A stretch of 64,000 nucleotides of DNA from Candidatus Spongiihabitans thiooxidans. GTDB taxonomy: Bacteria; Pseudomonadota; Gammaproteobacteria; Arenicellales; Poriferihabitantaceae. The DNA is taken from assembly GCA_001543005.1 (NCBI GenBank), contig LFLB01000022.1, positions 243,956 to 307,955 on the forward strand. Reading direction: 5' to 3'. Position numbers and translations under genes: made by a program. Numbering within the stretch: the first letter of the stretch is position 1; every line of letters begins with the position of its first letter. Positions 7,453-48,965 of the stretch are shown here, piece after piece. The notes beneath the pieces were generated by a model. The model worked only from the letters and a program-made list of their open reading frames with translations, made no database searches and had not been told where the DNA came from.

Positions 7453-10400
7453 ATGAAAATAATTTCACCCATTGCGATTGACATGGGGGCAAAGAATACG
7501 GGGGTTTATCTTAACCACTTTGAACAAGGGGAAGATCCAACCACCAGCGGCAATATAGCAGGAAAGACGATTGTTATCGACAGCAGTAAAATCACTTGGT
7601 CGCAGGCTGGTCGAACGCAAAAACGTCATCAAGTTAGGGGTAATAAACGCCGAAAACTTGCGAAACGATTAATAAAAGTAATTTTAAAATCGCACTATGA
7701 ACTTGACATAGAGGAAAAGCAATTAGAGTTTTTAATGGGATTGCTCAACCGACGAGGCTACAATCGCATTGAACTAACACCGGAGCAAGAAGAAGTTTTA
7801 AGTACCAAAGCGGTTACTGAGTTCTTCTTTCCGCGCCTTTTTACTGAGCCAAGCACTGGCGTTTCGCTTTTGGATGGGCTGTCCGATAGAGTTATTATTA
7901 AAAACAAGGATAACCAAGACTATTGGAAAAGTGTTTTAAAAGATGATGTTTTCTCTTTGTCTGGAAAACAAAACAAAGAGTTTAAGGACTACTTAGCCCT
8001 TCATGACAAGGGAAAGGATAAAGATGAAATAGCAGATCTTTCCAAAGCGTTCACTGCAATCAAACAAGTTATTGGAAAGCAAATAGAAAATTATGATAGC
8101 GGTCATTTGCACCGCAGAGACTACTTGGAAAACATCAAGAAAGATGTACAAAATGAATTACTTAAATCTTTGCTGAGCGGCGATTTAACTGCCGAAAAAT
8201 TGTCCTTCCTGATTGGAAATGTTAGCAATCTGCAACTCAGAGTTTTACGAAAATATTTTAACGATTATGGTATGCAGTCAGGCGACAAGTGGGCACCAGA
8301 CAAACTGCACGAATTCTTTTTTAAGTGGGTAAGAAGTTGGCATTGTAAGCAGGATGATGAAAGAACGAACCAAAGGACTCTATTGGCTCGGAAGGGAAAG
8401 GACATTCTCGAAGTGTTCACCACATCTAACCCCGAGCTAAGCATCCCGCCATATGAAGACCAAAACAATCGGCGACCGCCGAAGGATATGACCTTGCGAT
8501 TAAAACCAAAAGGTTTAGATAATAAATTATCCAACTGGGAAAGTATTACTCGGTCATTGGTTAAGAGTTATTGTATGCCCCAAACCGAAAAAAATATTAT
8601 AGAACCTGTATGTATTCAAAAAAACCTGAAGGATAATGTGCGCCCGCAAAAGATAAAGGGCGAGGTCCAAGACACTGAACAAAGGCAAATACTAGCGGAT
8701 ACACTGCATCGTATTTTAGATCGAACCATTAAATTAGATCCTTACAAGTTGCGGTGGCTTAGTGAGGGGAGCAAAACCGATGAAGCGCAAAAAGCAAAGG
8801 AAGTATTGAACAGGCATAGCGAAAACAAAGCCGACGCTATTATCGATTTTGCAAAAGAATATTACGATGAAGTGGATATTGCGAAACAGGGTTTGTGGTC
8901 GGATAGTGAACAGAGTTTGTTTTTTAGATGTAATACCAATCCGCCTCATAAAAACAAGATTCAGCATAACCTTATTAGTCATATTTTGGGCGAAAATTTA
9001 AATGAACAAAGATTAAGCTACTTTGTGGATGACTGCTGGAATGAAAAAATAGGACGTTTAACCATTAAGGGCATTGCTAAAAAAACGGAAGAAGAACGCA
9101 AAAAATACGGCAACCGTTTTAAACATTTGGTGCAAAGACAAGTTTGGTTAAATAAACAAGGTGACAGGGAATTAGATAACGAAAGAAAGCATGGTGTTAA
9201 TGGCAAAGTTATTTTAGAAGTTCATGAAAAGTGTTTAAAAGCAACTGATAAAATTGCCGAATATTTTACGCACAATGATAGAAAGAAAAAGATTTATGCC
9301 AATGTTTTCAGCATGGCGCAACTTTACAATATTTTAGAAACCAATATTCGGGGATTTAGTAAAACTGATAATTGGAACACGATTGAAAACGCATGGCGTT
9401 CACGGAAAGATGACGCGGATGAACAAGGCGAGTATATTGCCAATGCTGTCAGGCTAACGGCTGATAGCATTCGCCCGTTTGATGGCATGCTGGACAGGAT
9501 TATCAGTCGTCAAGCCTATGAAATAGCTGGTATGAAAATCCAACAAATTGGAAACTTAAAGATTGATACAAATGATACTTTGTTTGTGCCTATTTTTATG
9601 GAGCAAAACCGTTTTTCATTTGAACAAAGTTTGCATGAAATAAAGGGCTTAAAAAATGTTAAAAAGAAAGCTAAAGAAAGAGTAGAAAAAGGCTTAAAGA
9701 AACAAAAAACACAATGGCAAAATAAAGACGATAGAATTAAGAAAAATAAATATTGTCCTTACACTGGCGGGATTATTGGCAAAGGTGAAATTGATCATAT
9801 AATTCCACAAAGTGAATCCAAAAAGCGCGGTGATGTGGTGTTTAACTCCGAGGCAAATTTAATTTATTGCTCTGGAACCGGCAACCATACAAAAGGCAAT
9901 GTTAGATGGACATTTGAGCAATTACACCCTAACTATTTAAACGAAGTTTTTGCAGGTGAAACCAACATAAAACAAACCATTATTGATTTTGTAAATGGTT
10001 TGGATGAAAACGATCCGATTAGTTTTCATAATTTAGAGGGAAAAGAGCAAAATTATTTACGCCACGCCCTATTTATTTCAGATTTAGACAGTAAAACTTT
10101 TCCAATCCTCAACACCCGATATAAAACTTTTGTCAATGGAACGCAAGGCTATCTTGGTAAGAAAATCCGAAAATTGTTGCAAGATAAATACCCAAATGTA
10201 GAGATAAAAACCTATCAAATACCAGCTCAAGAAGTCAGCCAATTACGAAAAGTTTTGGGTAGTCTTGACAAAACCTCTAAAAAACAAGATATACAAAGTG
10301 CTTTTTCACATGTGGTGGATGCTTCATTGGTGTTAGCCACTGCTTTGCAAAACCCTAAAATAGCCGAGGAATTGCAATCCACTAATGTAACTGAACTCAG

Positions 10401-12126
10401 TGAACAAGGGCAGTGGTTAAAAGCTTTATTGCCCACTCATGCAGATGTCCAACACATTGAACGCAAGCCAAAATATCGCAAAAACTTATCCTCTACGCAA
10501 ATTTTTAAAGAGGGTTTGTATGGCGAGCGGTTTATGCCGATTTTGTTAGACAATGAAAAACTGTATTATGGTTTTTCTTTGGACAATTGCCATGAAATTG
10601 AACCATTAAAACAACCAAAAAATCACAGCAAAGACTTTGACAAAAAAGTACTGACAGTCAAAGAAAAACAATTAGTAGCACATAATAAATATTTTGATTT
10701 ACTGAAAGAATTTTTATACACAGGTTCGAGCAGAAGGAAAAATAAAAAACCAGTTACTGATAGCATGCAAGATAATCAGGACAAATATTCATACTTATCC
10801 ATTGATACAATAAAGGCACTCAATCATCTGCAAAAGTGCGCCAAAGAGGTTTGCGATACCCGGGCAACAGAACAAGCAAAAAAATTGGAGAAACTTCGTT
10901 ATAGCGTGGAAAAGAAAAACATTAAAAACGTTTTACTGCAAGGACGAGGCAGACGCACTTTTATCAAACAATTAGACGATAAAAAATTTAAAGTATCAAA
11001 GTTAACACTACCTGCAAAAAAAGATTGGGAGCGATTAATAAACCACCCAATAATTGATTATCAAGGCAATAAGGTAACATTAAAAGAATGCTTTGACAAA
11101 CCAGAACAAGTGGAAATTGATAATCCAAAAATGGTTAATTTTTGGCAAGATTTATCGCAAGAAAGCGGTTTTAAAATTGAATATTTAAAAGATAATTTAC
11201 TTAAGAAAAATGACAAAGGAGAATTTTATAAACAATTGGGCATTATTCCAAAAGGTGTTTTTGACCAAAAAATCAAAACAATGAAGTTGTTAAAACCACT
11301 TGCAAATAGTGCATTACTCGAACAATCTTTTGGTGTTGAATTTAAAACAATGACTGATTTAATCCCTCAAGAAAGCTGGGATAAGTTATTTGAAGAATTT
11401 TTCCACACTAACAAAATTAAAAATAACAACTTCCATAAACAAGTCAGAAAAGATTACTCTTTGCCTGAGGTTTCTGCACCGTCTGGAGGGTTTAGAATTC
11501 AGCGCAAGAATTCACTAACAAATGAAACAATTTACCAAGTGAGCGCGATTGCTGACGGCGGATATGCATGTGGTTTCGCCAAGAAAAAAGACGGTAGCAT
11601 TGATATGAGTAAGAATGGAGTTACATTTAATCCTGCCTTAAAAGCGAGCCGTAGGACCGCCTATATTGGCAAGTCTGGAAAACCATATATTCATAAAGAA
11701 TCGGATAGTACTGAGGTGGAGTCATTCGGGAGTTCCCGAGAGGTTGCACTTAGTTCCGAAAGTGTATTGAAATGCCGCCTGACTTTGGCGGAAGCGAGCA
11801 GAATTGATGTTGCGATTACCATTTCTAACGATATATTCAAGAAAATAATAGAATTTTCAAGCGAGGATATTGATGTTTCTCAACCACCACCCGATTTTTC
11901 TATAAAATTTACGAAAAGCAATGGTGGAAGAGAAGAACATGACAAATTTAAAGAATTTTTGAATGCCATGAACATACCAACTCCGCGGGAGGCTGGAAAC
12001 CCACAGAGGTGGGCGTATAAGTTTGAGGTCCAAGCATCGCAAGATACGGTTGTTTTGTCATACAGAACATCCATGACAGCAGAATTAAAAACAGCTTACC
12101 TGAATGGCACGCTAGTAAATGATTAG
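7453..12126 (+). CDS. cas9: Cas9, type II-B (large Francisella/Legionella-like form)
   Basis: 1557 aa. RuvC-I PIAIDMGAKNTGV (D10); Arg-rich bridge helix RTQKRHQVRGNKRRKLAKRL; RuvC-II FVPIFMEQNRF (E717); HNH GEIDHIIPQS...NSEANLIYCS...GNHTKGN (D781-H782); RuvC-III SHVVDA (H953/D956). The N-terminus closely resembles what I recall of F. novicida Cas9 (MNFKILPIAIDLGVKNTGV...). RBS AGGAGA lies 7 nt upstream. It is followed by cas1-cas2-cas4 and an array. Confidence 0.95.
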   Translation: MKIISPIAIDMGAKNTGVYLNHFEQGEDPTTSGNIAGKTIVIDSSKITWSQAGRTQKRHQVRGNKRRKLAKRLIKVILKSHYELDIEEKQLEFLMGLLNRRGYNRIELTPEQEEVLSTKAVTEFFFPRLFTEPSTGVSLLDGLSDRVIIKNKDNQDYWKSVLKDDVFSLSGKQNKEFKDYLALHDKGKDKDEIADLSKAFTAIKQVIGKQIENYDSGHLHRRDYLENIKKDVQNELLKSLLSGDLTAEKLSFLIGNVSNLQLRVLRKYFNDYGMQSGDKWAPDKLHEFFFKWVRSWHCKQDDERTNQRTLLARKGKDILEVFTTSNPELSIPPYEDQNNRRPPKDMTLRLKPKGLDNKLSNWESITRSLVKSYCMPQTEKNIIEPVCIQKNLKDNVRPQKIKGEVQDTEQRQILADTLHRILDRTIKLDPYKLRWLSEGSKTDEAQKAKEVLNRHSENKADAIIDFAKEYYDEVDIAKQGLWSDSEQSLFFRCNTNPPHKNKIQHNLISHILGENLNEQRLSYFVDDCWNEKIGRLTIKGIAKKTEEERKKYGNRFKHLVQRQVWLNKQGDRELDNERKHGVNGKVILEVHEKCLKATDKIAEYFTHNDRKKKIYANVFSMAQLYNILETNIRGFSKTDNWNTIENAWRSRKDDADEQGEYIANAVRLTADSIRPFDGMLDRIISRQAYEIAGMKIQQIGNLKIDTNDTLFVPIFMEQNRFSFEQSLHEIKGLKNVKKKAKERVEKGLKKQKTQWQNKDDRIKKNKYCPYTGGIIGKGEIDHIIPQSESKKRGDVVFNSEANLIYCSGTGNHTKGNVRWTFEQLHPNYLNEVFAGETNIKQTIIDFVNGLDENDPISFHNLEGKEQNYLRHALFISDLDSKTFPILNTRYKTFVNGTQGYLGKKIRKLLQDKYPNVEIKTYQIPAQEVSQLRKVLGSLDKTSKKQDIQSAFSHVVDASLVLATALQNPKIAEELQSTNVTELSEQGQWLKALLPTHADVQHIERKPKYRKNLSSTQIFKEGLYGERFMPILLDNEKLYYGFSLDNCHEIEPLKQPKNHSKDFDKKVLTVKEKQLVAHNKYFDLLKEFLYTGSSRRKNKKPVTDSMQDNQDKYSYLSIDTIKALNHLQKCAKEVCDTRATEQAKKLEKLRYSVEKKNIKNVLLQGRGRRTFIKQLDDKKFKVSKLTLPAKKDWERLINHPIIDYQGNKVTLKECFDKPEQVEIDNPKMVNFWQDLSQESGFKIEYLKDNLLKKNDKGEFYKQLGIIPKGVFDQKIKTMKLLKPLANSALLEQSFGVEFKTMTDLIPQESWDKLFEEFFHTNKIKNNNFHKQVRKDYSLPEVSAPSGGFRIQRKNSLTNETIYQVSAIADGGYACGFAKKKDGSIDMSKNGVTFNPALKASRRTAYIGKSGKPYIHKESDSTEVESFGSSREVALSSESVLKCRLTLAEASRIDVAITISNDIFKKIIEFSSEDIDVSQPPPDFSIKFTKSNGGREEHDKFKEFLNAMNIPTPREAGNPQRWAYKFEVQASQDTVVLSYRTSMTAELKTAYLNGTLVND

Positions 12127-12853
12127 TGCCATCAACCCCAACCGCCAAAAAGCCCTGTTCCTTGCTAAAAAACAACTCCCTGAATTGGTATGCGATGCGG
12201 TGAACTTGGAGGGAGTGAACTTTACCCTGCCAGAGATACAAACCTTGCTGGACGGGATAACAGTGGGCGGGCATAGTTTGCAGGATGAGACGATTGCGCT
12301 TAATCAGGCCAATGCCTGGCGGTTTTTGTTTGATTGTGTTGAGCAAGACAGGTTTGCTCTTTCCAAAGATTTTGTTTGCGAATTGCACGGGATTCTTGCC
12401 CAGAAAGAAGCGCTGACCTGGGGTGTTTTCAGGGACGGCGGCGTAACCATTGCTGGCACCAATCATATCCCGCCGAGAGCGGACAAATTACCGACCTTGT
12501 GGCAACAGTTGACGGGAAAACATCATCCCGCCTTGCTACAATCAGAGATGCGCCAATCTAAGATAGACATCGAAAAAATAGACATCGAACAAATTTATAC
12601 CTGCGCTATTAGTTTATTTTTGCAAATGGCAAGGATGCAGTTTTTTTACGATACTAACAAACGCCTTGGGCGACTGATGATGAACGGCATTTTATTGGTA
12701 AACGGACTGCCCGCCATTAATCTGCCCGCTAAAAAACAGCTTGCATTTAATCAACTGATGCTGGATTTTTACGCCAGCGACGATGAGCAGCCAATGCAGC
12801 TTTTTATGCGTGCTTGTTTAGAGAGAAAAATTCTAGAAATAATGTCGGAATAA
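12119..12853 (+). CDS. Fic/Doc-fold-like protein with a degenerate catalytic motif, embedded in the cas operon
   Basis: 244 aa. Its ATG overlaps the cas9 stop by 8 nt, and its stop lies 5 nt before the cas1 ATG. Fic-like landmarks are NLEGVNFTLPEIQTLLDG and ELHGIL...GVFRDGGVTIAGTNHIPP. At the HxFx(D/E)GNGRxxR position it has QFFYDTNKRLGR (aa 174-185, nt 12638-12673). Confidence 0.75.
   Translation: MISAINPNRQKALFLAKKQLPELVCDAVNLEGVNFTLPEIQTLLDGITVGGHSLQDETIALNQANAWRFLFDCVEQDRFALSKDFVCELHGILAQKEALTWGVFRDGGVTIAGTNHIPPRADKLPTLWQQLTGKHHPALLQSEMRQSKIDIEKIDIEQIYTCAISLFLQMARMQFFYDTNKRLGRLMMNGILLVNGLPAINLPAKKQLAFNQLMLDFYASDDEQPMQLFMRACLERKILEIMSE
12563..12592. repeat. 15-bp x 2 in-frame tandem duplication inside the Fic/Doc-like ORF
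   Basis: atagacatcgaaaaa / atagacatcgaacaa (1 mismatch), encoding KIDIE-KIDIE. Confidence 0.9.
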
Positions 12854-12858
12854 ACTTC

Positions 12859-13845
12859 ATGCACGCCCACATAACGCTTACCGAATACGGCCAATTCATC
12901 GGTATAAAGAGTGAGTGTCTAACGGTAAAAGAGAACGGCACGGTCAAGGAATATCCGCTTAATCGCCTAAAAAGCATTCAGATCGCCAAGCAAGGCATCA
13001 GTTTTTCCTCGGATGTTATTATTGCTTGCGCTAATCGCGGCATTAAATTCTTCTTGTCTGATTTCAAGAATGAAATTATCTCTTGTCTTTCAGGCACACA
13101 GCAACACGCTGTTGTGCGCGTTCGGCAAAAGCAGTTCACATTTGTAAACAGCCCAAGCACGGCCATATTATCAGCCATTGTCATTGAGGGGAAAATCAAG
13201 AACCAACGCGCAACTCTGCTTTATTTTAAAAAATACCATCAAGACAAAGCCGCGATAATAGAAAAAACCGCCGAGCAATTAAAAACAATCTTACGACAGA
13301 TAAAAACCAAAGACTGGCAGAAATATGATCGCTGGCGAGATATTTTATTGGGGTTGGAAGGGCAAGCGGCCGCTCAATATTGGCAGTGTCTGGTTGAGAC
13401 AAATCTGATGCCGGATGATTTTAAGGGCAGGGTGGGCAGGCAAGCGCAGGATATTGGCAACAGGAGCTTAAATTACGGTTACGCCATCCTCACATCTTAT
13501 GTTTGGAATGCCTTGATCAATGCGGGCTTGGAGCCTTACGCCGGGTTTTTTCATGTCCAAAGAGCAGGCAAGCCGTCTTTGGTGCTTGATATGATGGAGG
13601 AATATCGCGCTTGGGCAGTGGATCGAAATATCATCAAGCACAGAGGTGTTTTGCGGGACAAAAACGAACTTACACCAATCATTAAAAAACAAATCATCAC
13701 CGATATTCATAAAACATTTTCCACTAAATATCATTATCACAAACGAAAAATACGATTGGAAAGTATTTTGCAAAGACAAATTTATCACTTGGCAGGCACA
13801 TTCGCGGGTGACAGGAAATACAAAAGCTATTGGTTCAGATGGTGA
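12859..13845 (+). CDS. cas1: Cas1 integrase
   Basis: The track ORF is 12814..13845. I prefer the ATG at 12859 (MHAHITLTEYGQFIG...). Cas1 landmarks: LLGLEGQAAAQYW, NRSLNYGYAIL, GFFHVQRAGKPSLVLDMMEEYR. Confidence 0.9.
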   Translation: MHAHITLTEYGQFIGIKSECLTVKENGTVKEYPLNRLKSIQIAKQGISFSSDVIIACANRGIKFFLSDFKNEIISCLSGTQQHAVVRVRQKQFTFVNSPSTAILSAIVIEGKIKNQRATLLYFKKYHQDKAAIIEKTAEQLKTILRQIKTKDWQKYDRWRDILLGLEGQAAAQYWQCLVETNLMPDDFKGRVGRQAQDIGNRSLNYGYAILTSYVWNALINAGLEPYAGFFHVQRAGKPSLVLDMMEEYRAWAVDRNIIKHRGVLRDKNELTPIIKKQIITDIHKTFSTKYHYHKRKIRLESILQRQIYHLAGTFAGDRKYKSYWFRW

Positions 13846-13849
13846 AGCC

Positions 13850-14158
13850 GTGGCGCAAGTAAAATTATACAATGAGGTTTTAGTAAGTTACGACATAGCC
13901 GATACCGGGCAGCGCACAAAACTGTTTAATAAACTGAAAGACATTAGCCTGACTTCAATACAAAAATCAGTATTTTGGGGGCATTTAAACAGGGCGGAAG
14001 AAACCAGCGTTAAATATTTATTGAAAACTTATTGCGCTAAAACGGATAAAGCCTTCATTGCCCGAGTCAAATTATCCGAACAAATCCAGCAGAACAACAG
14101 CGTGGGTTATGAGAAACAGGATTTCCCCCAATATTCCACAAGCTACCATGTCATATAG
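13850..14158 (+). CDS. cas2: Cas2
   Basis: The frame of track ORF 13646..14158 overlaps cas1 upstream. The Cas2 core LVSYDIADTGQRTKLFNKLKDISLTSIQKSVFWGHL begins just after cas1 ends. The most plausible start is the GTG at 13850, but this is uncertain. Confidence 0.75.
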   Translation: MAQVKLYNEVLVSYDIADTGQRTKLFNKLKDISLTSIQKSVFWGHLNRAEETSVKYLLKTYCAKTDKAFIARVKLSEQIQQNNSVGYEKQDFPQYSTSYHVI

Positions 14159-14726
14159 CTTGCCCATTAGTTTGCTCAGGCAATATTGTTTTTGTCCAAG
14201 AATTCCGTATTTTCAAGAATTGCTAAAACTCAATCCGCCCAAACCAGTGTGGGTCAAACAAGGCGAGGATTTGCACAAAGGCCAGGAAAAGATATTCAAA
14301 CACAGAACCTTAAAACGTTTTAACTTAGTGCAAGCCAAACAAGAATTCAATGTGTTTGTGAGCGCCGAAGAGTTGCAATTACACGGCATGGTGGATAGCC
14401 TGCTGAACAGCAACGAAGAAATCTACCCCATTGAATTCAAATTAAACGGGCACAAACCAGTCAAAGGGCAAATATTGCAACTCACCGCCTACGCTATGGT
14501 CGCGGAATACCAATACAACTTGCCTTGCAGACAGGGATTTATCCTTTTTGAAAATAAAGGCAAGACCCATCCGATAGTGTTCAAACTAAAGAACAAAGAA
14601 CAGGTGGTTATCATTCGGGACCAGATATTGAATGATTTAGAAAAATCCTATCTGCCGGATAGTCCGGCAACCCCAGCGCAATGCACGCAATGCGAATACT
14701 TAAATCATTGTAACGACAGAAGTTGA
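14148..14726 (+). CDS. cas4: Cas4 (RecB-like nuclease with Fe-S cysteines)
   Basis: The internal ATG at 14148 overlaps the cas2 stop. MSYSLPISLLRQYCFCPRIPYF (N-terminal Cys), IEFK (nuclease motif), and C-terminal CTQCEYLNHC. The presence of cas4 defines subtype II-B. Confidence 0.88.
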   Translation: MSYSLPISLLRQYCFCPRIPYFQELLKLNPPKPVWVKQGEDLHKGQEKIFKHRTLKRFNLVQAKQEFNVFVSAEELQLHGMVDSLLNSNEEIYPIEFKLNGHKPVKGQILQLTAYAMVAEYQYNLPCRQGFILFENKGKTHPIVFKLKNKEQVVIIRDQILNDLEKSYLPDSPATPAQCTQCEYLNHCNDRS

Positions 14727-14745
14727 TGTAGAGAAGTTGATGTAG
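14718..14745. repeat. 14-bp x 2 perfect tandem duplication spanning the cas4 stop codon
   Basis: agaagttgatgtag agaagttgatgtag. The cas4 TGA (14724-14726) lies in copy 1. Confidence 0.95.
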
Positions 14746-14765
14746 ATAGTAGCCTTGCTTTATAA

Positions 14766-14806
14766 CTAAAAAATCCCCCCATACTTAAAAAATATGGCGG
14801 GATTTT
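14766..14806. terminator. Bidirectional intrinsic terminator hairpin (cas operon end / tracrRNA end)
   Basis: Stem atccccccata (14773-14783) / tatggcgggat (14793-14803) with 1 mismatch and a 9-nt loop. It is followed by TTTT on the plus strand and by TTTTTT (complement of 14767-14772) on the minus strand. Confidence 0.6.
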
Positions 14807-14896
14807 GGTCAGATTTTACAACATGTCCAAGTTGATTCATCTTTATTTTAGATGATTTCAGTGCATCGCTTACTAGGTTATGATGTATCAGCACAG
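14766..14896 (-). ncRNA. tracrRNA: tracrRNA candidate
   Basis: Minus-strand 14891->14855 reads CUGAUACAUCAUAACCUAGUAAGCGAUGCACUGAAAU. It is collinear with the complement of the crRNA repeat over all 37 nt: 30 Watson-Crick pairs, 3 G-U pairs, and a 4-nt internal mismatch patch. Then come the hairpin CAUCU-AAAAUAA-AGAUG and a terminator with a U6 tail. The segment AUGCACUGAAAUCAUCUAAAAUAAAGAUGAA...GGAC resembles the F. novicida tracrRNA scaffold as I recall it (AAUGCUCUGUAAUCAUUUAAAAGUAUUUUGAACGGAC). The ends are approximate. Confidence 0.7.
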
Positions 14897-14902
14897 TGCG
14901 AA

Positions 14903-14931
14903 CTTATGACACAAATTTTCGCAAAATTCAA
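14903..14931 (-). promoter_or_regulatory. Candidate promoter for the tracrRNA
   Basis: On the minus strand: TTGAAT (14931-14926), a 17-nt spacer, then CATAAG (14908-14903). This places a start a few nt upstream of the anti-repeat. Sequence match only. Confidence 0.3.
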
Positions 14932-15016
14932 CGCTTTCCGGTATTTTTATGATTTTCGCAAAAACACCCAAAAAACACAGCAAGAAAAACAAGCCGAATC
15001 AGCATTCTAAAGCAGG

Positions 15017-17581
15017 CCGACACATCATAACCTAGTAAGCCAGCAACTGAAACCACACTGAGTGACTCACCTGATACGATCTCGCGAGCCGACACATCAT
15101 AACCTAGTAAGCCAGCAACTGAAACATGTTTATGTTAAATTTATGCAGGTCTATATTTTCCCGACACATCATAACCTAGTAAGCCAGCAACTGAAACCTG
15201 ACTAGATGACTGGCACCAACACCAACACCAGCCGACACATCATAACCTAGTAAGCCAGCAACTGAAACCTATCGGGCGTGGCGCATTTGTCCCGCTCCGG
15301 ATATCCGACACATCATAACCTAGTAAGCCAGCAACTGAAACGTCTTGACTCAAGTTGAGGAGCCTCCCACTTGCCCCGACACATCATAACCTAGTAAGCC
15401 AGCAACTGAAACGCCCACTGGCACACTGGCACACTGGCCCACTGGCCCGACACATCATAACCTAGTAAGCCAGCAACTGAAACCAATTTCCGCATTTGTA
15501 TTAATCTCAAGTGCGCGCCGACACATCATAACCTAGTAAGCCAGCAACTGAAACCAAAACTTCATGCGCTGCAAGTCCGAGGTGCGAGCCGACACATCAT
15601 AACCTAGTAAGCCAGCAACTGAAACATAGACAATCCCATAGTCTCAGCTATATAAGTATCCGACACATCATAACCTAGTAAGCCAGCAACTGAAACTCAG
15701 TCCCCGAATTCCTTGCTCGCTTGGCGGCGCCCGACACATCATAACCTAGTAAGCCAGCAACTGAAACCTCACATTAATTCAGCTGGCGCAGCAACATATT
15801 TCCGACACATCATAACCTAGTAAGCCAGCAACTGAAACAGAGTCGCGACACTGAACAGCAGTTGACATTCTCACCCGACACATCATAACCTAGTAAGCCA
15901 GCAACTGAAACAGGTCGGGATGATGGCTTTTGTCCAGCGGGACTTTGCCGACACATCATAACCTAGTAAGCCAGCAACTGAAACTGCAAAAATCGACTTT
16001 GATTAAGAGAGCCTTTTCTCCGACACATCATAACCTAGTAAGCCAGCAACTGAAACATCACAGTGACTTCGGTATGTGGCGCGTTGTATGCCGACACATC
16101 ATAACCTAGTAAGCCAGCAACTGAAACTTCCAATGGAGTGAGGAAAAAGGGCAGGAATAATCCGACACATCATAACCTAGTAAGCCAGCAACTGAAACGC
16201 ATAAACCGCCGCGAAAGATTCACTTTTTAAATCCCGACACATCATAACCTAGTAAGCCAGCAACTGAAACATTATATTCTACGTCGAATTCTGGCGTGTG
16301 AATGTCCGACACATCATAACCTAGTAAGCCAGCAACTGAAACCTCAATCTGAGTTCCATAACGCCAAATTGAAAATACCGACACATCATAACCTAGTAAG
16401 CCAGCAACTGAAACCCAGGGGATCGACGCCTTGCCGGTCGGCGGCGCCCAGCCCATTTTTTGCCGACACATCATAACCTAGTAAGCCAGCAACTGAAACA
16501 CAAGGCTCCATGCAACTCTATGGCCAAGCCTCAACCCGACACATCATAACCTAGTAAGCCAGCAACTGAAACCTGCGGCAAGCATTATACGCGCATACTC
16601 GCTATTGCCGCCGACACATCATAACCTAGTAAGCCAGCAACTGAAACTTATGGGAATCCCCATATACCAGTCTCCCGCTCACCGACACATCATAACCTAG
16701 TAAGCCAGCAACTGAAACAACTCATTGATTTTTATAGATTGTGTCATTTTTTGCCGACACATCATAACCTAGTAAGCCAGCAACTGAAACCAAGCTGGAC
16801 ATTGGTTTCTTCTGGATCAAAATCCGCCGACACATCATAACCTAGTAAGCCAGCAACTGAAACTGCGCGCCGCGGTAAATGCGACGGCGTGTTCTTGTCC
16901 GACACATCATAACCTAGTAAGCCAGCAACTGAAACGTTCGGCGTGTAATGCGAGTCCCACCAAGCATCGTCCGACACATCATAACCTAGTAAGCCAGCAA
17001 CTGAAACCCCATTGCTGCGCGGCGAGGATTAGTTTTTTTCCGCCGACACATCATAACCTAGTAAGCCAGCAACTGAAACCATTTTCATGCTATGCAATTA
17101 GATTTGCTCGACGCCGACACATCATAACCTAGTAAGCCAGCAACTGAAACTTTGGGTGTCTGCTCCCCGCCGCCACAACATAGCCGCCGACACATCATAA
17201 CCTAGTAAGCCAGCAACTGAAACAATCCCGTGGCGAGAATTTGCACAGCGGAATTAAACCGACACATCATAACCTAGTAAGCCAGCAACTGAAACCCGAC
17301 GCGGCAGCAGTAGAGTTACTAAATAATCGCCGACACATCATAACCTAGTAAGCCAGCAACTGAAACTCAAAATAGCCCCGGCGAATTTTCGGCGTCATGC
17401 CCCGACACATCATAACCTAGTAAGCCAGCAACTGAAACCAAGCGTTGAGAAGTTTCAATTCTGCAAGAATGCACCGACACATCATAACCTAGTAAGCCAG
17501 CAACTGAAACTTCGTAACAGCCTCTGTTTTTCATGCCCACATAACCGACACATCATAACCTAGTAAGCCAGCAACTGAAAC
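15017..17581 (-). CRISPR. CRISPR array, 36 repeats of 37 nt and 35 spacers (34-38 nt, one of 48 nt)
   Basis: The plus-strand repeat is ccgacacatcataacctagtaagccagcaactgaaac, identical in every one of the 36 copies I read (first 15017-15053, last 17545-17581). On the minus strand it begins GTTTCAGTTGCTG..., the same 5-prime repeat sequence I recall for the F. novicida II-B crRNA. Together with the tracrRNA strand, this indicates minus-strand transcription, antisense to the cas operon. Confidence 0.97.
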
Positions 17582-17733
17582 AGTTGAGGCGACGCTGGAC
17601 GCGGTCAGTTTCGCAATTTGATTGCGGTTGCGATTCAGCATATAGTCCACCGCAAGTTCGATATGCTCGGGTTTGATTTCGTTGAAGCGCTACAAGCCGC
17701 TAAAATCCAGCAGCGGATTATTATTTTCCATTT

Positions 17734-17759
17734 CAAGTTATTAAGGCAAGTTATTAAGG
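17734..17759. repeat. 13-bp x 2 perfect tandem duplication just upstream of gor
   Basis: caagttattaagg caagttattaagg, ending 8 nt before the gor ATG. Confidence 0.95.
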
Positions 17760-17767
17760 TGCGGTCA

Positions 17768-27500: not shown

Positions 27501-29882
27501 TTATTTGCTCGCATGAATCTTCTCTCCCATGCGTTCAAGCACCGCTTGCACTCGTCTCTGTGTCATGCCATTTTCCATGAACTCTTTCACATCGTTGATT
27601 GCGTTTCTCTTGATTTGTAGCCGACGATAATGCTCATGCTTCTCTACCACATCCTCCTGTTTCAAAATCTCCAGAAGACCGTAACACTGTTCTATGCCCG
27701 TCGTTTTGCCGGTCTTCCAATCATCCTCTAAGATAGTGCGGACGCGCAAGCGCCCGTGGATCCAGAAACGGCTGAGAACTGTCTCCAGATTTTTGCGGAT
27801 GTCTTCTTTGGTGATTTCCACCGAGCCGATTTTATTCAAAACCAACTTGGCTGTCTCGCTACTCGTACAATTTTCAAACCGGGAATCGTTCGGTAGCTCA
27901 AGGCTTCCAGAAAATTTGCAATTAACAAACCGCAAATCACTCTGAGTGCTTCCTTTTGTCAGAGAAAAATCGACAAAACTGGAATCTCGGATTTCCCAGC
28001 CGTTCAGATAAATTTCGCCGAGTGCTCCCCGCACATGAAGGTTCGCGACGCGCTTCGCGCTCCCATCCCCTAGCAGGGAGAGAATAGTGTCGCCGCGCTC
28101 TCTTCGGCTCTCACCGCCCCTGCTGCGGGAAATCACTGTTTTGGCGATAATGTGGAAAAGAAAACTTTTCAGCGAATGCTCAATACCTCTGCCAACGCAA
28201 GCCTTGTGCAAGCCGACAACTTTATCCACATTCTGCATGTCAAGAGCATGCGCCACCCGCTCGCTCAGATGCCCGCTACCATCAGCCTCGGCTTCAATGA
28301 GCACTCTTAAATCTTTGTTTCTCTTGCATTCTTCTTGAAAACTTTGATTTGATTTGCCCATAATAAATCTGCGAATGTGAGATGCTTGCAGGTAGTGACG
28401 CAGAAAATCAATTTTGAAAAGAAACTTACCGGGACGATTATTAATCTCTTCAAGGAAGGCATGATCGGCTATCTTGTCAATATCCTCCGGTTGAATTTCG
28501 CACTTGGGGTCAGTGGCAATGTCATTCAACTCGAACTCGCTTGAAGTAATCGCAATGTTTTCGAACACTTCGTGCATAGTTTCTGCTTCGGTTTGGGTTT
28601 GTTGCCGTTTGTTTTCCCGTCGCAGGATTTGCAGAAAAAACTCCCGGGTAGAATTTTGCTGTGTAGTTTTGTCCGTCATAACAACATAATCGTCGCCGCC
28701 TTTCTCAACCTGATCGGCAATCATCATGGCGCAAGCGGGCAAGTTGAAAAAAGAATATTCATTCGCGTCGTCGCCCTGAGATTTTCGCAAATCGCTGTAA
28801 AACTTCTTCGCCTTTTGAGTAAAATCATTGCTGTTCTCCTTGCCGGAGAAATACTGGTCAAAGTATTTGGAAACGTTCTTAGAATCAAACGGCTTAAGAC
28901 GGAATAGTTTGTGCTCTTTCGCTACCGATTCGTCAATTTCCCGATTCCAGAAGGAAGGCCTGGTTGTCAGCATAATTCTGGTGTTGCTGTCCTTGGCGAT
29001 GCTGGCCAACCAGTTGAAGTTTTCTTGAGGTACAAGCGGCACTACCCCGCTTGATTTTGCTAATTCGTCAAACCCGTCAAAAATGAAAGCGAAATAACCC
29101 AGTTGTATAATTCTGGCAAACTCTTCGCTTCGACGCAAAGGGAATTCCGCTTCGCCGGCTTTCATCGTTAGTAACGAGATCAAGATATCGCCGAGATTAG
29201 TCGCACTGTGTGCTCTTTCGCTCAATTCCCGCCAGTTCGTTTGCCCTGTGAGTAAAAGGGGGACAACACGCGATTTTTTCCACTGATCCGCCAATTCCGA
29301 CGCGATTTTTGCCGCCAATGTTGTTTTGCCGACTCCGGCATCGGCTTTTATTACCACAACACTTTCACCGGTTCCTTTGCCGGAGAGCATGTTCGAGAAA
29401 TTTTGTAGCGACCAAGTAGCACCACGTTCCTCCTCCACTTGCGGTTCCACATAATGTTCCGCCTGAAGATTCTCTATCCGCTTCTTATCTTCCTCAATGT
29501 ACCCTGAGAATATATGCTGAATTTTCTTCCACATTAAATCCTCAAAAATATAGATACGGCCTTCATCTTCCAACCGCTTAAGCACATTGCGCCCGGACAT
29601 GCTTTCTGGAATGACGATGAAGCAGTTCTCCTTAGTGAAAATGCTTCTTGCACCAAGGACAGCGTCCTCAACATTTCGAATATCCTCATCGAGACACCCT
29701 GTCAAGAGATAGACAAACCAGTGGGTATGCTCGGTGATTCCAGCTCGAATGTGAGCTTCAAAAACCCGACACCGTTGCTGATGAAGCCCGAAGTCCTGAG
29801 CGTCTTTCTTCTCCACATCGTGATAGCCGAGAAACTCCAAATCAGTTTCTATCAGTGGGCCTGATTTTCCAGTTTTTTCCAT
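27501..29882 (-). CDS. NACHT-domain STAND NTPase (bacterial NLR-like), N- and C-terminal domains unassigned
   Basis: The track ORF is 27501..29918. I prefer the ATG at 29882, preceded by AAGGAGG. Walker A VVVIKADAGVGKTTLAAK, Walker B YFAFIFDGFDELA, sensor IMLTTRPSFW. A ~170-aa N-terminal domain has no motif I can name. The C-terminal ~370 aa include a possible pentapeptide-like stretch (LRFVNCKFSGSLELPNDSRFENC). Confidence 0.8.
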   Translation of the reverse strand: MEKTGKSGPLIETDLEFLGYHDVEKKDAQDFGLHQQRCRVFEAHIRAGITEHTHWFVYLLTGCLDEDIRNVEDAVLGARSIFTKENCFIVIPESMSGRNVLKRLEDEGRIYIFEDLMWKKIQHIFSGYIEEDKKRIENLQAEHYVEPQVEEERGATWSLQNFSNMLSGKGTGESVVVIKADAGVGKTTLAAKIASELADQWKKSRVVPLLLTGQTNWRELSERAHSATNLGDILISLLTMKAGEAEFPLRRSEEFARIIQLGYFAFIFDGFDELAKSSGVVPLVPQENFNWLASIAKDSNTRIMLTTRPSFWNREIDESVAKEHKLFRLKPFDSKNVSKYFDQYFSGKENSNDFTQKAKKFYSDLRKSQGDDANEYSFFNLPACAMMIADQVEKGGDDYVVMTDKTTQQNSTREFFLQILRRENKRQQTQTEAETMHEVFENIAITSSEFELNDIATDPKCEIQPEDIDKIADHAFLEEINNRPGKFLFKIDFLRHYLQASHIRRFIMGKSNQSFQEECKRNKDLRVLIEAEADGSGHLSERVAHALDMQNVDKVVGLHKACVGRGIEHSLKSFLFHIIAKTVISRSRGGESRRERGDTILSLLGDGSAKRVANLHVRGALGEIYLNGWEIRDSSFVDFSLTKGSTQSDLRFVNCKFSGSLELPNDSRFENCTSSETAKLVLNKIGSVEITKEDIRKNLETVLSRFWIHGRLRVRTILEDDWKTGKTTGIEQCYGLLEILKQEDVVEKHEHYRRLQIKRNAINDVKEFMENGMTQRRVQAVLERMGEKIHASK

Positions 29883-30170
29883 GATTCCTCCTTTGCAGAT
29901 TTTGTTTGGAAACTTCACATCATGCCAAAATATGTGGGGAAATCACGCTCTACAATGGGGTGGTTACACTTTTATTCCCGCATTAGATATGTCATCGGCT
30001 CGCTAAGTCGCCACCTTTTATATTTAAGTTAGAGAGATTAGTTTGTCGCGTCAAACTTAAGATCGCCCGAAATAAATATTTTTCCCACGGACACTTAACG
30101 GGGATACTTCGACCCATAGTTAAAGGAATTATTGTAGAATTTACCCCTTACAAATTTTTTTCTTATCATC

Positions 30171-32148: not shown

Positions 32149-32778
32149 TCAATGGTCCCCGTTATGTGATTTAACTCGTTTTCGGAGCATTTCCTGAAGT
32201 TCTTCGATTGACAAAAGATTCTCTCCTGAATGAAGCATCCTGTGGCAATTTGAGCAAACCAGCGCGATCTCATTTGCTTTTGTTTTTCTTGTTCCTTTCA
32301 TCTCAGAAACAGGGACGGTGTGGTGGGCTTCTATAAAGCCTGCGCCTAATTCACCATACGTATCCAAAAAAGAAAAATTACAAACATCACATATAACTTC
32401 ATCAAGCCTCTGTTCTTTTACTTTTTTTCCAATGCTTGTGTCTCTTTCTAAATGTCTATGCAGCTTGTATTTTTCTTTTCCTTCTGGGTATTTTGATTCA
32501 ATAACTTCAGATTGTATTTTACTTTTTTCTCTATCCAGAATTTTATATCCGCGGCGGATAAAATAATTCTTTGCTTCGCTTGCAATAAAATCATGTGGCG
32601 ACCACTCCTTGCCATCAAGATACTTGTTTGCCGTTGATATTACATATTTTGGTGGATATTTTTTTCTGTCAATTAACAAATCATATCTGACCGACTTTCT
32701 TGAGTTCGGCACGCCCTGCCTGTTAATCTCTTCAACAGCTTGTTGAATGTGGCTGTGCTGTAACCCCTTCGGTATCAT
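32149..32778 (-). CDS. HNH endonuclease with an N-terminal putative DNA-recognition domain (McrA/type IV restriction-like)
   Basis: C-terminal CDVCNFSF...GFIEAHHTVPVSE...ALVCSNCHRMLH (a CxxC...HH...CxxCH zinc HNH). The N-terminal ~100 aa include RKKYPPKYVISTANKY. The surroundings are markedly AT-rich. Confidence 0.8.
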   Translation of the reverse strand: MIPKGLQHSHIQQAVEEINRQGVPNSRKSVRYDLLIDRKKYPPKYVISTANKYLDGKEWSPHDFIASEAKNYFIRRGYKILDREKSKIQSEVIESKYPEGKEKYKLHRHLERDTSIGKKVKEQRLDEVICDVCNFSFLDTYGELGAGFIEAHHTVPVSEMKGTRKTKANEIALVCSNCHRMLHSGENLLSIEELQEMLRKRVKSHNGDH

Positions 32779-34953: not shown

Positions 34954-35904
34954 CTATTTCGAAGACTTCCGCGCTCGGGGATGTGCTTTGTCATAGACCT
35001 TGGCAAGATGTTGAAAATCCAGATGGGTGTATATTTGTGTGCTGCCGATATCTGAGTGTCCCAGCATTTCCTGCACCGCGCGCAAATCGCCGCTGGATTG
35101 GAGAACGTGACTGGCGAATGAGTGGCGCAACATATGCGGATGCAGTCTGCGACCAAGCCCTTTTGCTTTTGCCCATTGGTTTAGCCGATATTGAATGCCT
35201 CGCACACTCAACCTTGTTCCATTTTGATTTACAAACAATGCATTTTCCGGCTGCGCATTATTTTGCGGCGGCATATTAGTGCACGGCTTTAGCAACTCGT
35301 GCCGTCTTGTCAACCAGGCTGTTAGCGCGGCAACGGCTTTGCGACCCACCAGGACTATCCTTTGTTTGTTGCCCTTGCCGACAACGATAATTTGGTTTTG
35401 TTGAAAGTCGATGGATGTGTCATTAAGAGAAGCCAGTTCGGACAATCGCAACCCTGAAGAATAAAATAGTTCAAGCATGGCATGATCGCGCAAGGACAAA
35501 ATGGAACTATCGTGTTGCTCAAGCAGCTCACTGAGTTCATCAACGCTTAGCGTCTGCGGCAATTTTTTCGGATATTTTGGGGCCGCTATCCCTGCAAATG
35601 GATTAACCACCACGCCGCCTTGCTTTAACTGGAATCGATAGAACGCCCGGCATGCTGAGAGCATACGCTGTATGCTGCGCCCGGATAATCCGTGCTGGTG
35701 TAGTTTTGCTGGAAAAAATCGCGCTTGCCGGATTGATAACAATGACCAATCCGAAATTTCCTTCTCCTTGGCAAATTCAATTAGCTGCCGCAAATCACGC
35801 CGATAAGCATGGATTGTGTTCACCGATAGTCTTCTTTCGCGCTCGAGGGCATTCAGGAATTGCTTGACTTGACCTTGCAGCCCGGAATCTTGCGAACGCG
35901 GCAT
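34954..35904 (-). CDS. xerC: Tyrosine recombinase XerC
   Basis: 316 aa with the C-terminal catalytic region HPHMLRHSFASHVL...LGHSDIGSTQIYTH, in dapF-DUF484-xerC synteny. Confidence 0.9.
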   Translation of the reverse strand: MPRSQDSGLQGQVKQFLNALERERRLSVNTIHAYRRDLRQLIEFAKEKEISDWSLLSIRQARFFPAKLHQHGLSGRSIQRMLSACRAFYRFQLKQGGVVVNPFAGIAAPKYPKKLPQTLSVDELSELLEQHDSSILSLRDHAMLELFYSSGLRLSELASLNDTSIDFQQNQIIVVGKGNKQRIVLVGRKAVAALTAWLTRRHELLKPCTNMPPQNNAQPENALFVNQNGTRLSVRGIQYRLNQWAKAKGLGRRLHPHMLRHSFASHVLQSSGDLRAVQEMLGHSDIGSTQIYTHLDFQHLAKVYDKAHPRARKSSK

Positions 35905-36888: not shown

Positions 36889-37728
36889 TTAGATTTCTAT
36901 ACTTCCTTCGTAAACCGTATGCACCGTGCCGGTTAGATAAACCTGGGATTCTGCTCCCAGCCAATCAACCCAGGCACTGCCACCGGGTAATACAACTTCA
37001 ACCCGGGAATCGAGCAAGCCGCTGCGGATGCCGGACACCACGGCAGCACATGCACCACTTCCGCATCCCAAAGTTTCTCCGGCACCGCGCTCATAGACTC
37101 GAAGTTTTATTTCCCGGCTTGAAATTATCTGCCTGAACCCAATGTTGGCCCGCTCCGGGAACAGATGATGGCTCTCCAACAACGGCCCAAGGGTCTGAAC
37201 ATCTGCATTTTCGACGCTATCCACCTGAATGACACAGTGCGGGTTCCCCAGGGATAGCGCGCTAAATTCCACCTCCCCGAACTCGGTAGTGGCGTGGTAA
37301 CTCGGCAATTGCTCGGCAACCGTCAATGGTATTTTTTCTGGCGCAAATTCCGGTACGCCCATGGCCACGGTAACGGTATCATTCTGATTCAGGTGTAACT
37401 GTAATGTGGTGGTTTTTGTCTGCACCTCGATAGTTGCCTCATCTGATAATCCCTGGTCATGTAAATATCGGGCAAAACATCGCGCGCCATTGCCACATTG
37501 CCCAACCTCGCTGCCATCGCTATTGAATATTCTCAATCGATACCCACTTTTATTGATACGCTTGCCGCCTAACGGTTGTGCAACCAAAATCTGATCGCAA
37601 CCAATTCCAACATGACGATCCGCGATATGCCTGGCAATCGTCTGTGTCATTTCGATACGCTCAGTAACACCATTAAGCATCACAAAATCATTGCCGAGGG
37701 ACTGCATTTTGGTAAATCTGTATTTCAT
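36889..37728 (-). CDS. dapF: Diaminopimelate epimerase
   Basis: 279 aa: FTKMQSLGNDFVMLN, NSDGSEVGQCGNGARCFARY, ERGAGETLGCGSGACAA (both catalytic Cys motifs). Confidence 0.95.
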   Translation of the reverse strand: MKYRFTKMQSLGNDFVMLNGVTERIEMTQTIARHIADRHVGIGCDQILVAQPLGGKRINKSGYRLRIFNSDGSEVGQCGNGARCFARYLHDQGLSDEATIEVQTKTTTLQLHLNQNDTVTVAMGVPEFAPEKIPLTVAEQLPSYHATTEFGEVEFSALSLGNPHCVIQVDSVENADVQTLGPLLESHHLFPERANIGFRQIISSREIKLRVYERGAGETLGCGSGACAAVVSGIRSGLLDSRVEVVLPGGSAWVDWLGAESQVYLTGTVHTVYEGSIEI

Positions 37729-47741: not shown

Positions 47742-48965
47742 TCAAAAATCGGTATTGCGTTTTCTGTTTGCGGCAATACGAAGACGTAGCGCGTTCAATT
47801 TAATAAAGCCAGTGGCGTCCGATTGATCATAGGCGCCGGCGTCTTCCTCAAACGTCACAATTTTTTTGTCAAACAGTGAATCCGAAACCGATTGGCGGCC
47901 AAGCACATCGACATTGCCTTTGTATAACCGTATTTTAACTTCGCCGTTAACCGACTCCTGAGAGGCGTCAATCATTTTTTGCATCATCAATCGCTCCGGA
48001 CTAAACCAATATCCATTGTAAATCAATTTTGCATAGCGTGGCATGAGCTCGTCTTTCAAATGCGCCACTTCCCGATCCAGGGTCAGTGATTCCATGGCAC
48101 GGTGAGTTTTCAGCATAATGGTTCCGCCAGGGGTTTCGTAACAGCCTCTGTTTTTCATGCCCACATAACGGTTCTCCACAATATCGGCGCGCCCGATGCC
48201 GTGTTTGCACCCCAATGTATTGAGCGCGATCAAAACCCCAGCTGGGGTTAACGCCTTGCCATCGACTGTAGTGATGTCACCTCTGCTAAATCCAATAATT
48301 ACTTGTTCGGCTTTATCCGGTGCGTCCATGGGCGAAGTTGTCCAGCTCCATACCCGATCGTCCGGCGTCTGCCAAGGATCCTCTAACTCTCCGCCTTCAT
48401 GGGAAATGTGCAGTAAGTTGGCGTCGATGGAGTAAGGCGAACCGCCGTCTCTTTTCTTTTCCACTTCAATGCCGTGCGTTTCAGCATACGCCATCAATCT
48501 TTCCCGGGAAGTCAGATTCCATTCTCGCCAAGGCGCAATAATGCGAATATCGGGGTTTAATGCGTAGGCGGATAATTCAAAACGCACTTGGTCGTTGCCC
48601 TTGCCGGTTGCGCCATGGGCAATCGCGTCGGCACCGGTTTTGTGCGCGATTTCAACCAAATACTTTGCAATCAAAGGGCGGGCAATGGCGGTTCCCAGCA
48701 TATATTCACCTTCATACATAGTGTTTGCCCGAATCATCGGAAACACATAATCCCGGGCAAACTCTTCTTTTAAATCCTCGATAAAAATTTCCTTAATGCC
48801 GAACTTCTCGGCTTTTAGTCGGGCCGGTTCAAGGTCTTCCCCCTGACCAATATCCGCGGTGAAGGTCACCACTTCGCAGTTATATTGGTCCTGCAACCAT
48901 TTCATAATAATCGAAGTATCCAGCCCACCTGAATAGGCAAGCACCGTTTTACTTATCTCAGACAT
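47742..48965 (-). CDS. argG: Argininosuccinate synthase
   Basis: 407 aa: [44 protein letters not shown]. Confidence 0.97.
48135..48168 (-). other. Protospacer: exact chromosomal match to CRISPR spacer 35
   Basis: 48135-48168 (ttcgtaacagcctctgtttttcatgcccacataa) is identical in all 34 nt to spacer 17511-17544. It lies in the argG codons for [12 protein letters not shown]. Confidence 0.97.

Follow-up and report, generated by a model that had tools for sequence, protein, structure and literature searches.

Why should a bacterium with a seemingly intact Cas9 carry a CRISPR spacer that matches one of its own housekeeping genes perfectly? The question arises in a 64,000-nucleotide (nt) stretch of Candidatus Spongiihabitans thiooxidans (GenBank assembly GCA_001543005.1, contig LFLB01000022.1, positions 243,956 to 307,955; referred to here as the window), in which the cas-distal spacer of a type II-B array is identical to part of argG, the gene for argininosuccinate synthase. 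A first-pass annotation had pointed out the match, suggested that the spacer would be the newest of the array if acquisition is polarised as elsewhere, and listed a non-permissive protospacer adjacent motif (PAM), an anti-CRISPR, silencing, control by a Fic/Doc-like protein and a regulatory use of Cas9 as possible explanations. At face value, a perfect self-match beside an intact Cas9 would point to an undiscovered II-B anti-CRISPR or to the regulation of genes by Cas9. The evidence leads instead to a tolerated fossil, which makes this genome a poor lead for anti-CRISPR hunting. We consider it probable that the spacer is a genuine, self-derived argG spacer at the old, cas-distal end of the array, tolerated since its target is not licensed for Cas9. 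The self-match is a new example of a known phenomenon.

The argG self-match and its flanking sequences

The window contains exactly two copies of the 34-mer TTCGTAACAGCCTCTGTTTTTCATGCCCACATAA, at 17511–17544 and at 48135–48168, both of them on the plus strand and with 0 mismatches, which confirmed the 34/34 match of the first-pass annotation. No third copy was found in the 64 kb, even when up to 3 mismatches were allowed, and the expectation from shuffled sequence was 0.00. The identity extends by one base to 35/35. However, the 37-nt repeat begins with this extra base (17545, C); the CCGACAC start of the repeat is also found in a related locus (L002), and the spacer proper is for this reason 34 nt long. 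The copy at 17511–17544 is spacer 35, bounded by perfect repeats at 17474–17510 and 17545–17581 (repeats 35 and 36); read from the minus strand, its CRISPR RNA (crRNA) guide is the reverse complement, TTATGTGGGCATGAAAAACAGAGGCTGTTACGAA. The copy at 48135–48168 is the chromosomal protospacer. It lies within an intact argG on the minus strand (47742–48965, 407 amino acids (aa)), whose coding strand is the non-target, crRNA-identical strand, and the matched codons encode a conserved 12-residue segment that begins with R. The protein spans the full length of both argininosuccinate-synthase Pfam domains. The surroundings are housekeeping in character (an ornithine/aspartate carbamoyltransferase-family gene, hda, purM and lipopolysaccharide genes), and the order OTCase-argG-GT2 recurs in a relative (L031). 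This context and synteny identify the self-target as a host gene that belongs to neither a prophage nor a mobile element.

The spacer is thus self-targeting in the strict sense, as it matches a chromosomal site beyond the array over its full length and has true repeats on either side, and the self-match in argG is real. That the spacer is an assembly artefact is extremely unlikely: the source appears to be a metagenome-assembled genome of a sponge symbiont, and independent Logan contigs break at both array edges, but a chimera would not yield an insert of exactly one spacer's length between two perfect repeats.

We then considered whether the site would be licensed by a PAM. All characterised II-B Cas9s have NGG as their PAM: it was determined experimentally for PsCas9, it is stated for FnCas9 in the same papers, and the active Legionella II-B system also uses NGG (written 5′-CCN). 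At the argG site, the position that Cas9 would read (48132–48134, minus strand) holds ACC, with ACCCCTGG as the extended flank. The coding strand 3′ of the protospacer reads ACC CCT GGC (Thr-Pro-Gly), ACC being the Thr codon of the conserved CYETPGG motif, and the same codon is present in argG of the two closest relatives. Since a Thr codon cannot be NGG, the site never carried one. A host escape mutation of the PAM was excluded on the same ground. With ACC in place of NGG, we favour the non-permissive PAM, which had stood first among the explanations listed earlier. On the opposite side of the protospacer, the plus strand reads CGG (48169–48171), an NGG PAM if the spacer was inserted in the other orientation; this suggests a reversed insertion.

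Sister loci provide further indications of the PAM. Two spacers of L005 and L006, one of them the terminal spacer that these loci share, match overlapping sites in a phage cytosine-methyltransferase gene (dcm) at 31–33 of 36 positions. The protospacers are in Salmonella phage S9-5 and Klebsiella phage BUCT711, and each has TGG 3′ on the canonical side. The proteins that accompany Cas9 in the window are close to those of L005 and L006 (aa identities of 90% for Cas1, 84% for Cas2, 88% for Cas4 and 91% for Fic), and the fic-cas1-cas2-cas4-tracrRNA-leader block has 86.5% nt identity over 2.9 kb (window 7453–15016 compared with L006 3141–10886). The Cas9 proteins of the two loci are only 25% identical, and an adaptation module that can be swapped across such different Cas9s suggests a shared PAM.

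The orientation of the guide bears on whether the spacer could serve a regulatory purpose. The guide and the argG mRNA are of the same sense, and the guide would bind the template strand; because it is identical to the coding strand, it cannot pair with the mRNA. A non-cleaving regulation of argG, either by repression of the kind exerted by the small CRISPR/Cas-associated RNA (scaRNA) or by RNA targeting with Cas9, has a precedent in F. novicida, whose II-B Cas9 represses endogenous genes via scaRNA according to work cited in PMC6737040, and a degenerate repeat-like element in the cas-proximal flank might be taken to point the same way. We nevertheless regard it as very unlikely. RNA targeting calls for a guide complementary to the transcript, which this one is not, and a scaRNA-type interaction involves ~11–15 nt that adjoin a PAM within a promoter or 5′ untranslated region (UTR), whereas here all 34 of 34 nt match in mid-gene and the PAM-side flank is ACC.

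The search for a mobile argG donor, as proposed in the first-pass annotation, returned no copy of the 34-mer in plasmids or phages, where argG homologues are at most 79% identical, and no match in viral contigs. The argG genes of the closest relatives, with 91% and 87% nt identity, depart from the 34-mer at 3 and 4 positions. Because even these differ, the comparison points to the lineage's own chromosome, or that of a clonemate, as the donor. The competing idea, that a foreign argG homologue on a mobile element or in a related bacterium donated the spacer and that the match to the host is an accidental cross-match, is quite improbable. Homologues of argG do exist on large plasmids and in one phage record, but the limited identity of these copies, the lack of an exact copy in the viral contigs and the differences in the closest relatives leave a donor that is essentially conspecific.

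We propose the following account of how such a spacer could arise and persist. Self DNA would be sampled often, and licensed self-guides would kill the cell, so that only unlicensed ones survive. In type II systems, self-sampling is frequent and masked by the destruction of the target (PMC4335292). If the window Cas9 needs NGG like the characterised II-B Cas9s, the argG site would be neither bound nor cut. Capture may have involved the protospacer on the other strand, with its CGG flank, followed by insertion of the spacer in reverse, and the backwards guide would then point at a PAM-less site. The argG spacer is probably without function and is most likely a harmless fossil. If confirmed, a backwards self spacer would be a natural example of orientation errors giving harmless memories.

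The acquiring end of the array

Type II-C arrays gain new spacers at the last repeat, the downstream end with respect to transcription (PMC12080349, PMC12638026). For II-B, a 2025 preprint proposes type-I-like, Cas4-mediated integration with II-C-like directionality and Cas4-based selection of NGG (10.1101/2025.06.12.659244). Polarity was assessed here from sister II-B arrays, with spacer order read from cas4 outward. A wastewater lineage (L007–L016) comprises ten metagenome contigs with identical Cas4 and the same architecture as the window. With one letter per spacer, the orders are ab-cdefghijklmn, ab-c, o-cdefgh, p-cdefghi (twice), q-cdefghijk and efgh, such that strain-specific spacers adjoin the cas-proximal flank and the common backbone is distal. 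Two contigs of a gut II-B lineage, L020 and L025, have different first spacers and the same second one, and the distal terminal repeat of the complete L020 array is degenerate. L005 and L006 likewise end distally in a common spacer followed by a truncated or degenerate repeat (0/300 shuffles reached the score). The spacer orders thus indicate that new II-B spacers enter at the cas-proximal end in two other lineages, as in II-C.

The flanks of the arrays were also compared. The cas-proximal flank of the window (14899–15016), with its two TTTTCGCAAAA boxes, would be the integration leader and also contains the putative promoter region of the trans-activating crRNA (tracrRNA). This boxed flank is kept in 6/6 lineages (the window, L002, L003, L005/L006, L007 and L020), whereas the distal flanks of the six are unrelated. 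In the window, the distal flank (17582–17767) consists of a junction (17582–17593) followed by native DNA upstream of gor. This follows from homology to the CRISPR-less relatives L029 and L030 (92–94% nt identity), which have gor and in which homology begins at 17593/17594, 12 nt past the distal repeat. With host DNA beginning this close to the last repeat, there is no CRISPR-borne leader on the distal side. A weak sigma-70-like site is present in this flank on the minus strand (17749–17720). Since the variable spacers are cas-proximal in sister arrays and the distal flank is host DNA, the argG spacer is most probably the oldest of the 35, with the acquisition end of the array at 15017 and the old end at 17581.

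The first-pass annotation had placed spacer 35 next to a leader and called it the newest. Its position at the transcription-upstream end stands; its recency does not, given that sister arrays acquire cas-proximally and that the distal flank is host DNA. A recent autoimmune accident, with the spacer as the newest one, possibly sub-clonal and assembled before it could be purged, is accordingly an unlikely explanation. It would fit the spacer's place as the first in the direction of transcription, a population assembly, which the window probably is, and the reported tendency of self-targeting spacers, in most CRISPR types, to be enriched at the acquisition end (Stern et al, 2010). However, the II-B acquisition end is cas-proximal in two lineages, and it is the cas-proximal flank that is conserved in all loci examined, the distal one being host DNA without a conserved leader.

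As the presumed oldest unit, beside the island junction, the argG spacer may, more speculatively, go back to the time when the array was founded in this host; in type II-C, apo-Cas9 promotes acquisition in that state and increases the risk of autoimmunity (PMC12477760). The distal-most spacer could represent a founder taken from self DNA at array neogenesis after the arrival of the island. If this is true, self-derived founder spacers would mark II-B and II-C arrays in general.

Several further features of these arrays and their flanks were observed. The two boxes (TTTTCGCAAAA / TTTGCGAAAA) are ~30 nt apart and are kept across sponge, wastewater and gut II-B lineages. Downstream of them, a conserved pseudo-spacer of ~26–28 nt lies beside a repeat-like sequence, GTTTTTCTTGCTG / CTTTAGTTGCTG (minus strand); no partial target for this pseudo-spacer was found in the window. 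The boxed flank could serve as an integration leader or as the binding site of a regulator, or it could be a scaRNA-like gene. We considered and rejected the weak repeat-like sequence as a mark of the trailer end, as this flank is conserved in all lineages and is on the side of the new spacers. L005 and L006, both from one metagenome (ERZ26167708), have identical flanks and cas genes, and 31 and 32 spacers of which only the terminal fossil spacer is common to both, which amounts to complete spacer turnover. Spacers 19 and 21 of L006 are identical, and spacers 43 and 56 of L002 differ by one base. The CRISPR-cas island of the window ends 12 nt past the distal repeat and is situated beside a gidA-mnmE-yidC-rnpA cluster, with the array ~1.6 kb from gidA and ~7 kb from yidC. 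L030 also has this cluster, without CRISPR, and upstream of gor, L029 and L030 have rplU-rpmA-obg in place of the CRISPR locus.

The type II-B locus and the question of target licensing

The gene order cas9-fic-cas1-cas2-cas4-tracrRNA-array represents a complete type II-B locus. The cas9 gene (7453–12126, plus strand) encodes a Csx12-type protein of 1557 aa (Pfam PF21069 (Csx12), E 8e-129), and the closest solved structures are those of II-B Cas9s, with PsCas9 the closest and FnCas9 among them. A scan of a genome collection for this Cas9 gave a single match, the 53% identical protein of L002. The RuvC and HNH motifs are intact, in agreement with the earlier statement that the catalytic motifs are complete: IAIDMG, FMEQN, IDHIIP...NSEANL and SHVVDA align with the II-B structures and with the L002 relative. 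Compared with the latter, the window Cas9 has an insertion of ~80 aa (residues ~1220–1301, nt ~11110–11355), which sits directly before the wedge and PAM-interacting region. The gene is AT-rich, with a GC content of 35–37% compared with ~47% around it. Judged by sequence, the pattern of identity between the window and L006 looks like the swap of a cas9 cassette.

A Fic/Doc-like gene (12119–12853, plus strand) lies within the operon, where it overlaps the cas9 stop codon and precedes cas1. Its motif, QFFYDTNKRLGR, is a Doc-like DxNKR in which Gln stands in place of the catalytic His. A 91% identical copy of the gene is present in the sister loci L005 and L006, and L002 has none; the gene keeps company with the adaptation module and not with cas9. 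The adaptation genes (12859–14726, plus strand) are cas1 (12859–13845), cas2 (13808–14158) and cas4 (starting at 14109 or 14148 and ending at 14726), with Pfam matches to Cas1, Cas2 and Cas4/PD-(D/E)XK. As is characteristic of II-B, cas1, cas2 and cas4 are present and csn2 is not.

The predicted tracrRNA (14766–14898, minus strand) begins with an anti-repeat (14853–14898) that is 80–85% complementary to the repeats, followed 3′ on the minus strand by two hairpins and then by a GC-rich hairpin with a U-tract, which would be an intrinsic terminator. Repeat and tracrRNA together fold like a single guide RNA (ΔG −77.7 kcal/mol, z −12.3). No Rfam family was found in the CRISPR locus or in the window. 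The array (15017–17581) contains 36 identical 37-nt repeats, CCGACACATCATAACCTAGTAAGCCAGCAACTGAAAC, and 35 spacers. Because the anti-repeat and terminator of the tracrRNA are on the minus strand, and because of the way the repeat starts on that strand (GTTTCAGTTGCTG (GTTTCAGTTGC)), the array is predicted to be transcribed from the minus strand, as the first-pass annotation had proposed. The F. novicida repeat presumably has the same 5′ start, GTTTCAGTTGCTG. At the corresponding -10-like position it carries TAAACT, and the repeats of the window (e.g., 17474–17510, minus strand) have, as judged by eye, the -10-like hexamer TATGAT ~7 nt before the spacer; the other II-B repeats that we inspected by eye have similar hexamers at the same place (TAGGAT, TATAAT). 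These hexamers hint at repeat-internal promoters as in type II-C. In F. novicida, the II-B array is known from experiment to be transcribed opposite to the cas operon (PMC3737331). The 37-nt repeats, the tracrRNA between cas4 and the array, and the orientation of the array opposite to the cas operon are all as in the II-B system of that report. Two side observations concern the spacers themselves. First, the spacer at 16415–16462 is 48 nt long, the others being 34–36 nt. Second, two spacers (15198–15231 and 15413–15446) are low-complexity sequences made of tandem motifs, CACCAACACCAACACCAG and repeats of CCAGTG[G/T]G.

This inventory bears on the possibility that the argG site is licensed after all, through a non-NGG PAM, and that an anti-CRISPR encoded elsewhere in the genome, silencing of the locus or the Fic/Doc-like protein prevents interference. 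The PAM-interacting domain of the window Cas9 is divergent and is preceded by the ~80-aa insertion, and the cas genes are co-transcribed with a Fic-fold gene that is kept in the sister locus. We still hold this explanation to be unlikely. The cas genes, the tracrRNA and the repeats are intact throughout; if the spacer is the oldest, 34 others were added after it, such that the system stayed adaptive. Every characterised II-B Cas9 uses NGG, and the adaptation module is common to a sister locus that selects NGG. The Fic motif is without its catalytic His, and no anti-CRISPR-like, aca or prophage genes were noticed in the annotated parts of the 64-kb window. Nothing in the data calls for the anti-CRISPR, the silencing or the Fic-like control suggested earlier. 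It is also improbable that a non-NGG PAM licenses argG and that a perfect, highly transcribed self-guide is checked or used by something new, for which the Fic/Doc-like protein would be one candidate.

Some results weigh against our preferred reading, in which the spacer is an old and unlicensed one. For the PAM, an NGG on the far side of a protospacer is expected by chance in ~6% of cases (1/16 to 1/18 per position), and a third, weaker match of the L005/L006 spacers (spacer B31) has NGG on neither side. Apart from its first ~60 nt, the window cas9 encodes a protein with no more than ~25% identity to its counterpart in the sister locus from which the NGG evidence comes. The PAM-interacting domain could not be aligned to solved structures: the wedge motif alone aligns, the PAM-reading arginines of PsCas9 (R1316 and R1369) cannot be transferred, and a search with this domain gave five distant relatives and no close ones. 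Nor did the other 34 spacers of the window, or those of L002 and L003, have a protospacer in the searches made. The window array gave chance-level matches only against GenBank phages, the L002 and L003 spacers gave no match to phages, and the 132 spacers of the window, L003 and L002 gave none to plasmids. Five protospacer scans of viral contigs (four with two-spacer IUPAC patterns, covering 8 window spacers, and one with a duplicate spacer of L002) were also without a match. For the age of the spacer, the polarity evidence comes from other II-B lineages; L005 and L006 have no internal spacers in common and so give no direct polarity signal; and the distal repeat of the window is perfect, not degenerate.

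Elsewhere in the window, possible defence genes are found in 27501–29918 and 32149–32778 (an 805-aa NACHT-domain protein and a 209-aa HNH endonuclease), and a XerC-like integrase (34954–35904) is close to dapF (36889–37728). Exact copies of window proteins are also present in the Logan assembly of SRR2064712. Considering the locus as a whole, we regard the polarity of acquisition in II-B, the apparent swap of a cas9 cassette and the adaptation module with its linked Fic gene, as far as each holds, as more notable than the self-match.

Comparison with known systems

Self-targeting spacers have reportedly served as markers for genomes that encode anti-CRISPRs (Rauch 2017; Watters 2018). Like the self-targeting spacers surveyed previously (Stern et al, 2010), the argG spacer represents a perfect match to a chromosomal, non-mobile gene of the same genome, next to an apparently intact cas locus. 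It differs in that the target lacks the PAM expected for the subtype and in that the spacer is, most probably, at the old end and not at the acquisition end. In contrast to those cases, neither degradation of the system nor an inhibitor need be invoked here.

In Cas4-dependent type I adaptation, spacers are reportedly integrated in flipped orientation at times (Shiimori 2018; Hu 2021; Dhingra 2022). The window resembles this situation in having Cas4 and in having NGG on the side of the protospacer that is wrong for the orientation of the crRNA. It is a single case, however, with a chance expectation of ~6%, and flipping is not known to have been measured in any II-B system.

The repeat's 5′ end, GTTTCAGTTGCTG, is one that we take to be common to the window and F. 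novicida. The II-B system of F. novicida (Sampson 2013; Ratner 2019) is of the same subtype and has the same locus order. Its scaRNA acts by way of a short, partially complementary stretch that adjoins a PAM in a 5′ UTR, unlike the full-length, mid-gene match without NGG found here.

Parallels in array behaviour exist with type II-C, as in Neisseria and Campylobacter (PMC12080349, PMC12638026, PMC12477760). There, too, the array is transcribed toward the cas genes and acquires spacers cas-proximally, a mutated 'extra' repeat is distal (in the case of II-B, in the sister arrays), and the repeats contain a -10-like hexamer. The window locus differs in being a II-B locus, with a Csx12-type Cas9 and Cas4, and its repeat-internal promoters are putative. 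The lesson is that in II-B, as in II-C, the transcription-upstream end of an array is not its acquisition end, and that both the rule 'leader-proximal = newest' and the PAM side are to be assigned from the orientation of the tracrRNA together with sister arrays.

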